From positions 472,298 to 536,297 of the forward strand of contig CP066684.1 of assembly GCA_016432325.1 (NCBI GenBank): DNA of 64,000 nt. The letters run 5' to 3'. The DNA comes from Candidatus Aenigmatarchaeota archaeon (GTDB taxonomy: Archaea; Aenigmatarchaeota; Aenigmatarchaeia; PWEA01; JACQIF01). A program made the position numbers and the translations under genes. Positions 43,676-57,298 of the stretch are shown piece by piece. The notes beneath the pieces are model-generated. The model made no database searches and was not told the DNA's origin. It was given only the letters and a program-made list of their open reading frames with translations. Positions within the stretch are counted from its first letter, which is position 1, and each line of letters begins with the position of its first letter.

Positions 43676-43977
43676 GGTGGGATTTTCCATCGTCGCGCCG
43701 GTGTACGGGAACGGAGTTCCCGACATGCCGGAAATGCCCGGCATTTCCGTGCACAGGCGGACTTTTCATGAAAGCTTTGGCGCGTATATCGAGCGAGCGC
43801 CGATAGGCGCGAGCGCGCCAAAGGTTTCGAACCCACGGCTTCCAGATTGCTTCTTTCATTCGGGACAGTGCCCGTCAATGCTTCCAACGCATGCATTAGA
43901 AGTCTGGCACTCCATTAGCTCCGTTTTCGCCATGCGTTGCCGCCAGCGAAAAGGCGCCCAAGCTGAGTTACAGGCCC
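43666..43977 (-). tRNA. tRNA-Arg(UCU) with three introns
   Basis: Exons give GGGCCTG/CAGGCCC acceptor + GCCA, ACTC/GAGT D stem, CCAGA-CTTCTAA-TCTGG anticodon arm, GTGGG-TTCGAAT-CCCAC T arm; introns ~43916-43957 (D loop), 43848-43896 (37/38), 43683-43825 (T loop). Confidence 0.9.
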
Positions 43978-44031
43978 TTGGGTATCTTAGCATATTGACT
44001 AAATAAAGAGGGTGTCTCTGGTGGTGCCTGC

Positions 44032-44100
44032 TCAGGCGAGGTCATATCCACTGTTCTGAAGTAGTGCCTTCGATCTTTTAACTTCTTTTATCTTGGCCAT
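44032..44100 (-). CDS. Candidate RiPP precursor peptide, 22 aa (MAKIKEVKRSKALLQNSGYDLA)
   Basis: ATG 21 nt from a palindromic TATA box, mirroring the divergent SagB gene; no homology evidence. Confidence 0.5.
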   Translation of the reverse strand: MAKIKEVKRSKALLQNSGYDLA

Positions 44101-44121
44101 ACGGTTTCTTGCATCTGCTTC

Positions 44122-44131
44122 TATTTAAATA
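44122..44131. promoter_or_regulatory. Palindromic bidirectional TATA box
   Basis: tatttaaata is self-complementary and centred between ATG 44100 (-) and ATG 44151 (+). Confidence 0.6.
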
Positions 44132-44150
44132 TCTCATAACATCGTTTTGC

Positions 44151-53752: not shown

Positions 53753-54664
53753 TTAGTTCAGGAAGGACTTTTTCAATCCGATCTCCGCCCGGACTCCTGT
53801 TATAACTTCGATGCCAGGAAGCCCGTGTCCCTTGTAGGCATTCCATAAAGCAAGCCTTTCTTGCGCCACACCGGGCAGCCACACATTCTCCAGATATTTT
53901 TCCAGTTCCGTGTCGTCGGCGAACATGAGACTCTCCTCTTTCAGAGGGGGTGGCACTTCCCCGTCGGCGGGTTTTCCAGATGCCCATTCGCGTACGTTTG
54001 TAAGGCCTGTCCAGTGGGCTCTTGCGTGTATAATATCCTGTCGAGTGCTTGGAACGCCGATGTTTTCAAATACTGCGAGAGTTTTGCCTTCTATATTCCT
54101 GTAGACGTCGTAAGGCAACCTGTGATGTGCAACGCTTTGCTCGACATTGTTCTCCATGCCCAGCTCGCATATGTAATAGCCAGCGTCTGTTAGGACGAAA
54201 TCGGACGCCAGGGCAACAGCCGCCGCGTTGTTTTGCTCCGATCTCCGCGTATCCACAAATCCTATATCGGCGGCGTCGGCCCACTGGTCCAGAGTGTGCG
54301 CCGCGGCATCCATCGTAGAACTCATAATCATCCCTGTCAGGCTCCTGTGGGCGAACGGCCTCCGTGAGTAGGCCGCCTTTCCAATTTCGTGGCCTGGATA
54401 CGGACCTAAGATCGGCTTTCTGTCTATCTCAAGCAATAGCATGGTGGATAGAGTATACGCCCTCTTCACCTCTTTGGGGGTCTCGGCATCTTCGTGAGGG
54501 CATAACGTTTTTATAGCGTCGAAGAGGTGAAGCGCTAAGCTGTCTGATGTATCTCTCAGGTCCGCATATTCGATGGGAAATCCTCTGGAAGACGAATCGA
54601 GGAGCCATTTCGCATCCTCTGTCGCCCTGATAAGCTTGAGCTTGGACGCTTTGTCGTATGGCAT
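53753..54664 (-). CDS. Hypothetical protein
   Basis: 303-aa ORF after TTTAAA box; no recognised motif. Confidence 0.6.
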   Translation of the reverse strand: MPYDKASKLKLIRATEDAKWLLDSSSRGFPIEYADLRDTSDSLALHLFDAIKTLCPHEDAETPKEVKRAYTLSTMLLLEIDRKPILGPYPGHEIGKAAYSRRPFAHRSLTGMIMSSTMDAAAHTLDQWADAADIGFVDTRRSEQNNAAAVALASDFVLTDAGYYICELGMENNVEQSVAHHRLPYDVYRNIEGKTLAVFENIGVPSTRQDIIHARAHWTGLTNVREWASGKPADGEVPPPLKEESLMFADDTELEKYLENVWLPGVAQERLALWNAYKGHGLPGIEVITGVRAEIGLKKSFLN

Positions 54665-54757
54665 GCCATGGAGAAAAGGCCAAGTTTTAAATAGTTATTG
54701 CCGCAAGGGCTGTAACTATAAAACGGCGCACCGTTTTAAATAACCGTCGCGCTCGCC

Positions 54758-55786
54758 CTATCCTTTCATGTCCATCAGATAGCGCGCCGGACCCAGACTC
54801 CTCAGGCGCTCGTTTTTGGCAGAAACTTCGCGGGCCATCTGTTCGCGCTCGTTCCGAAGCTTGCGGCGCACACCATCCGTGTAGTTGCTCGCTATCTGCA
54901 CCGCGTACCGCGCTCCGTTGACTATCTTATTGATCCCGACTCCTGCCATAGGATAGCCTACTGCGTCACCGTCTTCTGTGAAGTCCGTCAGCATTCTGCA
55001 CAGCAGGTTGTCCTCCTGTCGCGCTGAACGCAGCGTCTCGTTGAACACGGGAACTCCTACGACAGGAATGTCCGTTTGCGCGGCCACGCGCTTCGGCAGG
55101 TCTATCGCCTCTTCGTCCGCCAGCACCACGATGGCAGTCGCGCCTGCGTATTCGATTTCGCGCAGCGGTTCGAGCAGATTGTGCAGATCGGGAGAGGCCA
55201 CCGCGAACTCTTCGGAGGAGCCCGCGCCGAGCATTCTCGTAACGTATCTCTTCGCGTCGTTGAACTGTTGTGCTGGTATCTCGGCTTCGCGCGGCGTGAT
55301 TATGCCGACGAACGAATGGGCCTTCGCTTCCACGAGTTCGTCGAGATTCCTATAGTCGCGTATCCTGTTCCGCGCGTCCACATCAGCGAGCGCCGCCATC
55401 TGCGTCGCCAGCAAAGCCGCGCTCTCGGCCTGACCTATGCCAACGGTTCCGACAGGCACGCCGTCAGGCATCTGGATTATAGAATAGAGAGAGTCCATCC
55501 CGTCGGCGGCGCGAGTCCTTACAGGAAGTCCGATGACTGGCAGGACGGTTTCAGACGCTGTCATGCCGGGCAGGTGCGCGGCGCCGCCTGCGGCGGCTAT
55601 GCTTGCCCAGAAGCCGTCCTCTTCCAACGCGCGGGCCTCGCTGCCCATCGCGCGCGGCGTTCTGTGCGCCGACAGGACGCGGGCCTCGTAAGAAATCTGC
55701 AGCTTGTCCAGGACGTCGAACACGCCGCTTATGTTAGGAAGGTCCGAATCGCTGCCCATCCTCACTTCTATACGCTGGTTCATCAC
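54758..55786 (-). CDS. purE: PurE with a second, degenerate PurE-like domain
   Basis: MGSDSD, SAHRTP, AGGAAHLPG, SIIQMP; second half repeats LP..VAAQTDIPVVGVPV. Confidence 0.88.
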   Translation of the reverse strand: MMNQRIEVRMGSDSDLPNISGVFDVLDKLQISYEARVLSAHRTPRAMGSEARALEEDGFWASIAAAGGAAHLPGMTASETVLPVIGLPVRTRAADGMDSLYSIIQMPDGVPVGTVGIGQAESAALLATQMAALADVDARNRIRDYRNLDELVEAKAHSFVGIITPREAEIPAQQFNDAKRYVTRMLGAGSSEEFAVASPDLHNLLEPLREIEYAGATAIVVLADEEAIDLPKRVAAQTDIPVVGVPVFNETLRSARQEDNLLCRMLTDFTEDGDAVGYPMAGVGINKIVNGARYAVQIASNYTDGVRRKLRNEREQMAREVSAKNERLRSLGPARYLMDMKG

Positions 55787-56949
55787 GCTTTCATCTCCTG
55801 CAATCTTTTTATCCTTATCGTGGACTCCATCGCCTGTGCGCGGGCAACCACGTCTTCAAGGGGCGCGTCTTGGTTACCGAGAACGGTCAAGTGGCCCAGT
55901 TTTCTCTTGGGCGACGTGGTCTTCTTTCCATAGGTGTGCATGTGGACGCCACGGAAGAATCCAGCTTCCTTCATGTCCACTTCGTATAGTCCTGAATATC
56001 CCTGCGGGCCCAGTATGTTTACCATCACGGCCGGCCGCAGAAGTTCGGTGCTTCCGAGAGGCATCCCTGTTATTGCGCGCAGGTGCTGTTCAAACTGCGA
56101 CGTCGGGCAGGCCTCTATCGTGTAGTGTCCCGAGTTGTGCACGCGCGGAGCTATCTCGTTTATCATCACTTCGCCGGCCCTGACGAACATCTCTATACCG
56201 AACACTCCGGCGCCTCGCAGCTCCTTCAGGGTTTTCGCGGCCAGCGCTTCCGCTTTTTGCGCGGTGGCCTTGTCCATCCTCGCCGGCACGATGGTGGTGC
56301 GAAGTATGTTGTCCTCGTGTATGTTCTCCCCGACAGGGTACGTGCGTATCTCTCCGTTCGTGCCGCGGGCCGCGATGACAGAGACTTCCTTGTCGAATTC
56401 GATGTACTGTTCGACCATCAGCCGGCGGCCGTTGAAGTGGGCCAGAGCCGTGTCTATCTCCCTGCTGTCCTTGATCAGATAGTTTCCCCGACCGTCGTAT
56501 GAATCTGTTCGTGCCTTGAGCATCAGTGGGTATCCGAACCATTCGGCCGCGCGCACAATGCTTTCCGAACTTGCAACTTCCCTAAAGTCGGGAACAGGAA
56601 GGCCGCGGCTTTGAAGGAAAGATTTCTGCCTGAACTTGTCCTGTACTATTTGAAGGGTGTGGGAACTCGGATGAACTTTCTTGCCCATATTCTCCAGCTC
56701 GTGCAGCGTCTCGTAGCCGGCCAGCTCTATCTCGTAAGTCATCACATCAGACTGCTCGGCCAGCTCTCGAATCGCCTTGGAATCCTTGAAATCAGCGACT
56801 ATCTGTTTCTTCGCGAACGGCGCGGCAGGGCATCCTTCCGTCGGGTCGAGAGTCACGAGTTCAAAAGGAAGTTTCTTGCGCACGATCTCCTCGCCCATCA
56901 TCCTGCAGAGCTGTCCGCCGCCGATGACGCCGACTGTGATGGGATGCAT
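55783..56949 (-). CDS. purK: N5-carboxyaminoimidazole ribonucleotide synthase
   Basis: GVIGGGQL, YDGRG, NEIAPRVHNSGH, SQFEQHLRA, RKLGH; ATG at 56949. Confidence 0.95.
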   Translation of the reverse strand: MHPITVGVIGGGQLCRMMGEEIVRKKLPFELVTLDPTEGCPAAPFAKKQIVADFKDSKAIRELAEQSDVMTYEIELAGYETLHELENMGKKVHPSSHTLQIVQDKFRQKSFLQSRGLPVPDFREVASSESIVRAAEWFGYPLMLKARTDSYDGRGNYLIKDSREIDTALAHFNGRRLMVEQYIEFDKEVSVIAARGTNGEIRTYPVGENIHEDNILRTTIVPARMDKATAQKAEALAAKTLKELRGAGVFGIEMFVRAGEVMINEIAPRVHNSGHYTIEACPTSQFEQHLRAITGMPLGSTELLRPAVMVNILGPQGYSGLYEVDMKEAGFFRGVHMHTYGKKTTSPKRKLGHLTVLGNQDAPLEDVVARAQAMESTIRIKRLQEMKA

Positions 56950-56986
56950 GCTCACAGAACGCAGAAAAAAGATATATAGAAGGAAA

Positions 56987-57298
56987 TGGTAGCCCCGGGA
57001 GGATTTTCTGTTGCGCGCATCCGTTGCCGGAAGGCGTAATTCCATGAACGCTTTCGAGCGTTTACATATTGTCTTTGGCTCGAAAGGGTTCTTCGAACCT
57101 CCGTCCACTGGTCTCTCCTCGCGTATGAAATGAACGCAATCAGAGCCAGTTATCCTTTTGTGTAACCGTTGCGGAAGCGGGCTTCCGTAAACGCTTTTGC
57201 GCGGTGCACGAAACGGCTATGCCGTTTCGGCATGCCGGAAACACGCCGTGTTTCCGTGCAACGTGCGCAGAAGGGTTTGGCCACTAGACTACGGGGCT
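56987..57298 (-). tRNA. tRNA-Gln(CUG) with three introns
   Basis: Exons give AGCCCCG/CGGGGCT acceptor + ACCA, ACTGG-CTCTGAA-CCAGT anticodon arm, GGAGG-TTCGAAT-CCTCC T arm; introns ~57156-57276 (D loop), 57113-57139 (37/38), 57004-57091 (T loop). Confidence 0.9.

Follow-up and report, generated by a model that had tools for sequence, protein, structure and literature searches.

Two tRNA genes on the minus strand of the window (64,000 nt, positions 472,298 to 536,297 of contig CP066684.1, assembly GCA_016432325.1, of a Candidatus Aenigmatarchaeota archaeon) are each interrupted by three introns. One intron of each gene, namely the T-loop intron of tRNA-Arg(TCT) and the D-loop intron of tRNA-Gln(CTG), holds a copy of the same twin-hairpin module. 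A sequence-only reading of the window had claimed this shared module, and its sequence and coordinates as well as the two host genes were borne out. The features are listed below in window coordinates; G001 denotes the only other genome of the genus and G013 a genome of the same order.

43666-43977, minus: tRNA-Arg(TCT) gene, split by three introns and with the CCA encoded; spliced in silico it reaches an ARAGORN score of 119.5, and it is also recovered by the acceptor-stem, T-arm and CCA scan
43683-43825, minus: tRNA-Arg T-loop intron, 143 nt, intron family C, holds the module
43702-43753, minus: Arg copy of the twin-hairpin module, 52 nt; unit 1 (A-bulged hairpin) 43753-43726, unit 2 (T-bulged hairpin) 43725-43702
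43847-43895, minus: tRNA-Arg anticodon-loop intron, 49 nt; bulge-helix-bulge (BHB) candidate with a full outer helix, at most 1 nt from the borders
43917-43957, minus: tRNA-Arg D-loop intron, about 41 nt, with borders ambiguous by a few nt
56987-57298, minus: tRNA-Gln(CTG) gene, split by three introns and with the CCA encoded; after splicing in silico ARAGORN recognises a tRNA-Gln(CTG) of 76 nt
57004-57091, minus: tRNA-Gln T-loop intron, 88 nt, missing in G001 and found in G013
57113-57139, minus: tRNA-Gln anticodon-loop intron, 27 nt, missing in G001; BHB candidate exactly at the borders
57156-57276, minus: tRNA-Gln D-loop intron, 121 nt, family C-like, holds the module
57205-57260, minus: Gln copy of the twin-hairpin module, 56 nt; unit 1 57260-57233, unit 2 57232-57205

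The Arg copy is nested in the second hairpin of its host intron, between GTCCGCCTG and CCGGCG, and the Gln copy sits in the loop of the D-loop-intron hairpin (T)TGCGC-ACGT^CC-GCGCAA. The word CATGCCGGAAA occurs only twice on the plus strand of the entire 874,869-bp genome, both times within these two modules. This genome (G000) is a single contig (C1) and is judged to be 90% complete. A covariance model of the module (R1), run over it, scores the Arg copy at 62 and 60 bits on the minus and plus strand, respectively, and the Gln copy at 72.5 bits, with genome-wide E-values of 3e-16 and 1.9e-13 for the two copies. The Arg copy is predicted to fold into two hairpins at -28 kcal/mol and the Gln copy folds at -33.4 kcal/mol, with z-values spanning -4.7 (Arg) to -6.2 (Gln) and none of 200 shuffles equally stable. 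A near-identical sister of the Arg copy is located in another tRNA gene (C1 851740-851791). The Gln copy is spanned by contigs from four DNA runs. In the Arg module region (43675-43745) the contigs from all four public DNA runs break and depth is elevated, which fits the near-identical copy at C1 851740.

The element is a head-to-head pair of one hairpin unit, roughly 25 nt in length, and reads the same on both strands. Unit 1 has the form TGY-A-CG(stem-loop)CG-RCA and unit 2 the inverted form TGY-CG(stem-loop)CG-T-RCA. In single-sequence folds the module folds identically on both DNA strands, and the R1 scores are nearly equal on both strands, as fits the head-to-head symmetry. For an alignment of two own and seven foreign copies RNAalifold predicted two independent hairpins, and in this prediction as in the single-sequence folds each hairpin has a closing TGY/RCA stem of its own, from which a single A or U bulges. 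The sequence-only reading had instead drawn one closing stem (TGCA/TRCA) around both hairpins, with a spacer of 6 nt between them. When pairs were counted under both candidate structures in an alignment of 20 copies from the own genome (A4), the per-unit stems formed standard pairs in 19/20 copies at columns 3/26 (12 C-G, 7 U-A) and in 17/20 at columns 31/54, against 13/20 for the proposed closing stem (columns 3/54), which the Arg copy itself violates with a C opposite an A; the proposed closing stem is therefore not supported. Across these 20 copies 96.4% of the cells are paired and compensatory changes occur in 9/14 pairs, and none of 500 shuffles matched the observed values. The ends of the element, 5'-TG...CA-3', are invariant and the junction, CG-RCA joined to TGY-CG, is conserved, while the inner stems are variable yet always paired.

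The module belongs to a family that is spread over the whole genome. R1 gave 59 matches at E <= 10 and about 25 distinct places at E <= 1e-3, the latter in intergenic DNA, in five tRNA genes, within the RNase P RNA gene and, as an in-frame insert, in the gene for a family-B DNA polymerase. Most copies are intergenic or overlap merely the over-extended 5' ends of open reading frames (ORFs) from a crude in-house gene caller, and many fill short spacers beside gene starts or ends. A model-free scan for perfect twin hairpins found 59 in the genome versus two to three in each of three Markov-1 shuffles, and brought up a second abundant type, CTTCGAAC..GTTCGAAG followed by TTTTCGAAC..GTTCGAAAA. Four or five longer versions consist of two end units that enclose extra hairpins, at these places:

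127203-127337
424118-424213
441667-441759
758967-759063
103685-103771

One unit is letter-identical at the unrelated loci 24719 and 441667. The copy at 649171 shares 87-90% identity with non-orthologous copies of G001, against 66-80% for orthologous flanks; element copies are more alike than the DNA that surrounds them. The insertion points are often the loops or stems of existing hairpins, frequently right before CC (CTT^CC is one such loop), and the flanks are frequently complementary. The sequence-only reading had regarded tRNA introns as safe harbours for the element. Copies do lie there, but these sites are not special: 5/25 family loci fall wholly within tRNA genes and two more within 80 nt of one, whereas 20/25 lie outside tRNA genes, one of them in frame in a protein gene. 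The tRNA genes make up 7.4% of the non-coding DNA, which gives a nominal p = 0.034 for copies in them, but the five tRNA copies probably represent about three independent insertions and a preference of the module for tRNA genes is not claimed.

Comparison with G001 (90 contigs, 73% complete, about 70-77% DNA identity) provides filled and empty sites. The tRNA-Gln gene of G001 retains the D-loop intron and lacks exactly the 56-nt module: in G001 GCGCACTT is followed directly by CCGCGCAAAAG, and in the window GCGCACGT, the 56-nt module and CCGCGCAAAAG follow one another. The G001 intron forms an intact hairpin, TTTTGCGC-ACTTCC-GCGCAAAA, and the Gln module is therefore placed in a hairpin loop. 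Paralogous introns of the own genome (314349, 758067) hold an uninterrupted version of the same hairpin. A second clean empty site is the G001 RNase P RNA locus. In the own genome this gene (C1 649010-649275) carries a 51-nt copy at 649171-649221, in the region of the specificity domain; the Rfam model RF00373 gives 56 bits versus a gathering score of 84, with the alignment disrupted at the insert, and the gene falls below the threshold because the twin-hairpin copy interrupts it. At the intergenic loci 665406, 750015 and 441667 the copy is also missing from the G001 sites, in regions that align poorly. A reciprocal empty site considered at the G001 contig C25 was dropped as too divergent to call.

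Twin hairpins also occur within protein-coding genes. A copy of 54 nt, or 18 codons, occupies 40417-40470, in frame with an 829-aa protein that Pfam identifies as a family-B DNA polymerase; the 18 residues fall shortly ahead of the KKRYA motif. The polB gene of G001 lacks exactly these 54 nt, and in the alignment with a solved Thermococcus PolB the query residues 626-649 (24 residues) remain unaligned, between chain residues 591 and 590. Since the insert is missing from both, it is attributed to an insertion in the lineage of the window. The G001 polB gene itself contains a different 48-nt hairpin pair about 85 nt from the 54-nt site. Hairpin pairs of the second type account for further differences from G001, namely inserts of 48 nt each in the uL5 gene and the gene for an Lhr-type helicase, and of 42 nt in that for a DUF1405 protein. 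All five measured coding indels (54, 48, 48, 48 and 42 nt) are multiples of three, which argues for translation rather than splicing. Second-type twin hairpins were located within ORFs with Pfam matches to uL5, Lhr helicase, DUF1405, CysRS and Rpo7/S1, and a degenerate twin hairpin lies in argS:

C1 69949-69993, 316899-316944, 52551-52593, 191296-191339 and 10279-10322, and contig C33 of G001: second-type twin hairpins in ORFs
20089-20136, plus: degenerate twin hairpin, 48 nt, in frame near the 5' end of argS (ORF 20011-21720, Pfam ArgRS domains)

The argS copy, which had been counted as a third copy from the sequence alone, is thus present but weak, at 25.8 bits and E = 6.7e-5 with R1 (filters off), and its TGYACG ends are missing. 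The G001 assembly contains no orthologue of this gene.

Beyond this genome, an exact-pattern scan in which each prokaryote species was represented by one genome returned 25 loci, ten archaeal and 15 bacterial. The archaeal loci are on eight contigs of three 'Candidatus Aenigmatarchaeota' metagenome-assembled genomes (MAGs), in one 'Nanoarchaeota' MAG and in one 'Methanosarcinales' MAG. The pattern specified neither the second hairpin nor the TGCA end, yet seven of the ten have this end and a complete second hairpin, and the three Aenigmatarchaeota MAGs carry conserved copies. The 15 bacterial matches lack the second hairpin and are read as chance. Viral contigs gave 0 matches to the module pattern. 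Among 41 related genomes, the own genome included, R1 finds a match in eight and none in 33, the positive relatives being G001, one of the 20 further genomes of its order and members of two further families in the class. The letters at the ends and at the junction stay conserved even in genomes whose base composition differs widely. Judged by the named MAGs that carry the module, the organism of the window is probably a DPANN archaeon of the Aenigmatarchaeota.

The introns that house the module form a layer of their own. The unspliced window yields no tRNA with ARAGORN and nothing at the gathering thresholds of Rfam. In the whole genome ARAGORN with introns finds ten tRNA genes and Rfam eight above the cut-off; these tools recover only 8-10 of about 42 genes because the genes are heavily interrupted by introns. 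An unvalidated in-house scan (7-bp acceptor stem, T-arm, TTCRA and CCA) gave 72 raw candidates, of which about 39 are judged tRNA-like by this heuristic. A T-loop intron of 44-143 nt is present in 32 of the roughly 39-42 tRNA genes, many of which also have D-loop and anticodon-loop introns. The isotypes from brute-force splicing of 30 tRNA genes are tentative, with one Gln-like gene called Ser. The 32 T-loop introns fall into a few sequence families (A-F), each of them common to several tRNAs, and families C and D/F occur at both D-loop and T-loop positions. Family C (AGCCTTTTGCGC...GCGCAAAAGC...GTCCGCCTG...) includes the Arg T-loop intron and, through its first hairpin, the Gln D-loop intron. 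Family D/F is found at the T-loop without a module (60785, 620436) and at the D-loop with a variant module in three more tRNA genes (211186, 743633, 830562), and in family B the module occupies one site in 2/6 members (258221, 247018).

Whole introns have thus also been copied between tRNAs and between positions, as a second process separate from that of the module. The sequence-only reading had offered intron movement as an alternative; this describes the host introns and leaves the similarity of the Arg and Gln introns unexplained, for it stops at the borders of the module, which occupies different hairpins of the host intron in the two genes. The 5' part of the Arg T-loop intron is common to an intron of G001 as far as the module border. 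The module is a separate layer nested in the introns, where its insertions would be harmless since introns are cut out of the RNA. Orthologues of the tRNA-Gln gene are present in G001 and G013; that of G013 has D-loop and T-loop introns of unrelated sequence, which indicates that the introns are older than the module. A search for the intron families beyond the tRNA list gave ten match clusters, most of which resemble undetected tRNA genes, and introns as free elements are unsupported.

A strict BHB scan of the six host-intron borders matched only the two anticodon-loop introns and none of the D-loop and T-loop introns. Judged by eye, the Arg T-loop intron has a relaxed BHB motif only, with 3/4 central pairs, and the brute-force search for the borders of the Arg D-loop intron gave many equal solutions, all with a score of 119.5. 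Many T-loop introns were seen by eye to end in YGAG-AA^T, able to pair with the TTCG-AA^ of the T-loop. The genome encodes one splicing endonuclease (C1 849784-850062) and one RtcB ligase. The RtcB match (C1 406386-407777) lies in a 608-aa open frame, versus a family model of 426 positions, and the surplus length may be an N-terminal extension or another insert. Further peculiarities surround the tRNA genes. At tRNA-Arg (window 43612-43690) a second GCCCGCCA follows the trailer hairpin, and this hairpin recurs at C1 314602 and 24837. In several tRNA genes the 5' acceptor strand and a few D-arm bases are duplicated 45-135 nt upstream (C1 629801/629854, 700416/700549, 753597/753646, 829672/829729, 758126/758067 and 25082/25037), which could reflect an additional intron around position 9-12 or a pairing of leader and trailer that serves end processing. 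Elsewhere in the window (47468-47525) a weak Rfam match to the aspS RNA (21.6 bits, E = 8.3; gathering score 42.5), inside a 946-aa ORF, is taken as chance.

The module probably represents one type of copy within a family of mobile DNA elements that are short, palindromic and non-autonomous, and closest in lifestyle to the Rickettsia palindromic elements (RPE) and to the bacterial repetitive extragenic palindromes (REP) with their bacterial interspersed mosaic elements (BIME). This builds on the observed family, its structure and genome-wide spread, the empty sites in the congener and the in-frame coding inserts. The sequence-only reading had likewise suggested a mobile palindromic element of about 55 nt in spliced tRNA introns, and the roughly 25 copies, the empty Gln-intron and RNase P sites of G001 and the polB copy missing from both G001 and Thermococcus support it. 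Many unrelated sites of this small archaeal genome would have gained a copy, or lost one precisely, and copies would persist where they are harmless, that is in intergenic spacers, in hairpin loops of tRNA introns, in peripheral RNase P RNA and, at multiple-of-three length, in coding genes. The Arg T-loop and Gln D-loop copies would have been inserted independently, each nested in a different hairpin of related host introns. Movement may take place at the DNA level, on single-stranded hairpins, through an enzyme supplied in trans or a host process; the sites in hairpin loops, the lack of visible target duplication and the negative transposase searches fit such a hairpin- and single-strand-dependent mechanism.

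Several observations weigh against a mobile element. No target-site duplication is visible at two clean filled/empty pairs or at the flanks of the roughly 25 copies, nor do the copy flanks display a strict target motif. With one distant congener, insertion and precise deletion at the intron and RNase P sites are separable only by way of the uninterrupted paralogous hairpins. At the Gln copy neither an indel nor a joint that would mark a presence/absence variant appears in the contigs of four DNA runs from one study, which may be the source of the window, a weak comparison as contigs drop rare variants. The splicing of the host introns is itself deduced from gene structure. A nearby HUH/RAYT transposase or solo Cas1, anticipated from the sequence alone, was found neither in G000 nor in G001: across the few families that the transposase search covered, Y1_Tnp, the TnpB TNB domain, Cas1 and IS110 were all negative in these two genomes (90% and 73% complete). 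A DDE_Tnp_1 gene occurs in G001 only (contig C19), and was rejected as the mover as it has no related ends or module-like inverted repeats nearby. Finally, copies differ mostly by compensatory stem changes, a sign of selection on the hairpins that could mean a host function.

Transposase genes of related genomes were of little help in tracing a source. The sole PF01797 match in the own genome, at 11.6 bits, is the translated module and no Y1 gene. PF01797 is found in 6/41 related genomes, of which G022 (three 35-aa fragments), G023 and G032 have modules and G027, G034 and G039 have none; given this even split, and the lack of PF01797 in G000 and G001, an association of the module with Y1/RAYT genes is unusable. 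Weak look-alikes of the twin hairpin, scoring 22-33 bits, stand beside such genes, one about 170 nt downstream of a tnpB gene in G032 and one just upstream of a Y1 gene in G023, both of them divergent. Two ORFs flanked by look-alikes in the locus L128 had no Pfam match. G022 is rich in modules, but its IS200-like copies end, after tnpA, in an unrelated hairpin, CCACCGTA-TTTA-TACGGTGG, and were dismissed as the module source. Three G022 contigs (ends L130, L131) stop inside identical Y1-transposase fragments, which indicates that a multi-copy IS200-like element breaks the assembly.

Rickettsia palindromic elements, which also sit in RNA genes, are about 150 bp long and bacterial, in contrast to the archaeal twin hairpins of 42-56 nt with TG...CA ends that are nested in tRNA introns here, and the likeness is one of lifestyle. 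According to parts of PMC10969869 they are, as here, short palindromic repeats in a reduced genome, placed in frame in unrelated housekeeping genes as well as in non-coding DNA and without a transposase of their own. The 54-nt insert in the conserved polB gene, in frame and missing from the orthologues, is of just this kind. In anatomy REP/BIME come closest: their units, 20-40 nt long, are imperfect palindromes that have a conserved head and covarying stems, stand in inverted pairs and show no target duplication. The imperfect palindromic unit, covarying stem and inverted pairing recur here, whereas the head is TGYACG and not GTAG, the RAYT (Y1 HUH) gene was not found in G000 or G001, and REP/BIME are extragenic only in contrast to copies also within polB and RNase P RNA. 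Miniature elements derived from IS200/IS605 (PATE-like) share the hairpin ends and the absence of target duplication, and there are the look-alikes beside tnpB (G032) and Y1 (G023), but those matches are weak, the IS200-like hairpin of G022 is unrelated and tnpA/tnpB were not found in G000 or G001. A strict miniature inverted-repeat transposable element (MITE) would share the terminal inverted repeats, since the end units are inverted copies of each other; neither the target-site duplication nor a parent autonomous element with matching ends was found (few transposase families in G000 and G001; viral contigs). Transposition of tRNA introns in Thermoproteales was reportedly described by Fujishima et al. 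in 2010. The host introns of families A-F resemble such introns in that related introns occupy different tRNA species and positions; the module differs from them in that it is a sub-element whose borders are its own, is absent in an orthologous intron and is located mostly outside tRNA genes. A narrow literature search turned up no report of such elements from archaeal tRNA introns, nor of RPE-like ones from Archaea.

An unlikely alternative is that the module is a host-selected functional motif, spread by recombination. It might bind a dimeric protein, terminate transcription in both directions or stabilise RNA, roles of the kind proposed for bacterial REP. The maintenance of hairpins through compensatory changes, the end and junction letters kept across genomes of very different base composition, the many copies in short spacers beside gene starts and ends and the equivalence of both strands would all be expected of it. 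A functional motif would hardly be placed in frame in polB, in RNase P RNA and in discarded introns, be missing from G001 at the Gln intron, RNase P and polB sites, and have no match in 33/41 related genomes, the own included in that total. Repeated local origin through replication errors, by template switching or palindrome growth at existing hairpins and with no donor copy, is very unlikely. The frequent siting in loops or stems of pre-existing hairpins with complementary flanks, and the failure to find a transposase or target duplication, speak for it; against these stand the end and junction letters that recur at every site and in further orders of the class, an identical unit at two unrelated loci and the 87-90% identity of non-orthologous copies of two genomes.

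The whole introns may instead have been transposed or copied between tRNA genes and positions, with the module simply as the best-conserved part of one intron family. Transposition of tRNA introns is treated in passages of PMC4090602, for Thermoproteales, and in section 2.5 of a 2026 Asgard preprint, and the host-intron families here are common to many tRNAs and to D- and T-loop positions; the Arg intron and the intron at 851596, both of family C, have 89 nt in common at 90% identity, made up of the module plus flanks, and those at 258221 and 247018 likewise share module plus flanks. As a sole explanation this is contradicted by G001, which keeps the Gln intron and lacks only the module, and the 20/25 copies outside tRNA genes and the different host hairpins occupied in Arg and Gln leave it highly improbable. 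Chance resemblance between two GC-rich hairpin pairs, for which only the small size of the motif could be adduced, is refuted. The sequence-only reading had allowed for no further copies and a similarity no better than that of shuffled hairpins, whereas the family occupies about 25 places, no shuffle of 200 folds as well, the E-values are 3e-16 and 1.9e-13, twin hairpins number 59 against two to three in shuffled genomes, and the second hairpin, outside the search pattern, is conserved in 7/10 archaeal matches.

Read as a family of mobile palindromic elements, the module would provide a clean filled-site/empty-site case of a mobile element living in an archaeal tRNA intron, and would separate two layers that are usually confounded, an old, order-wide intron and a recent, nested hitch-hiker. 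A bolder proposal, to which only a slim chance is given, is that archaeal tRNA introns owe their growth, and perhaps their origin, to short palindromic elements. A Y1-independent hairpin process would land them in single-stranded hairpin loops across the genome, those in tRNA genes would survive only where a broad-specificity splicing endonuclease removes them, and the near-universal D- and T-loop introns of this lineage would be their descendants or mosaics. The route by which archaeal tRNA introns arrive is given as unknown in passages of PMC4090602 and is left open in the corresponding part of the 2026 Asgard preprint; an origin in palindromic elements, if true, would be a concrete answer. 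For the organism itself, the finding would mean that selfish palindromes are tolerated in a DPANN genome of 0.87 Mb, within DNA polymerase, one ribosomal protein, one helicase and RNase P RNA as well as in one in five of the tRNA genes, a behaviour known from Rickettsia.

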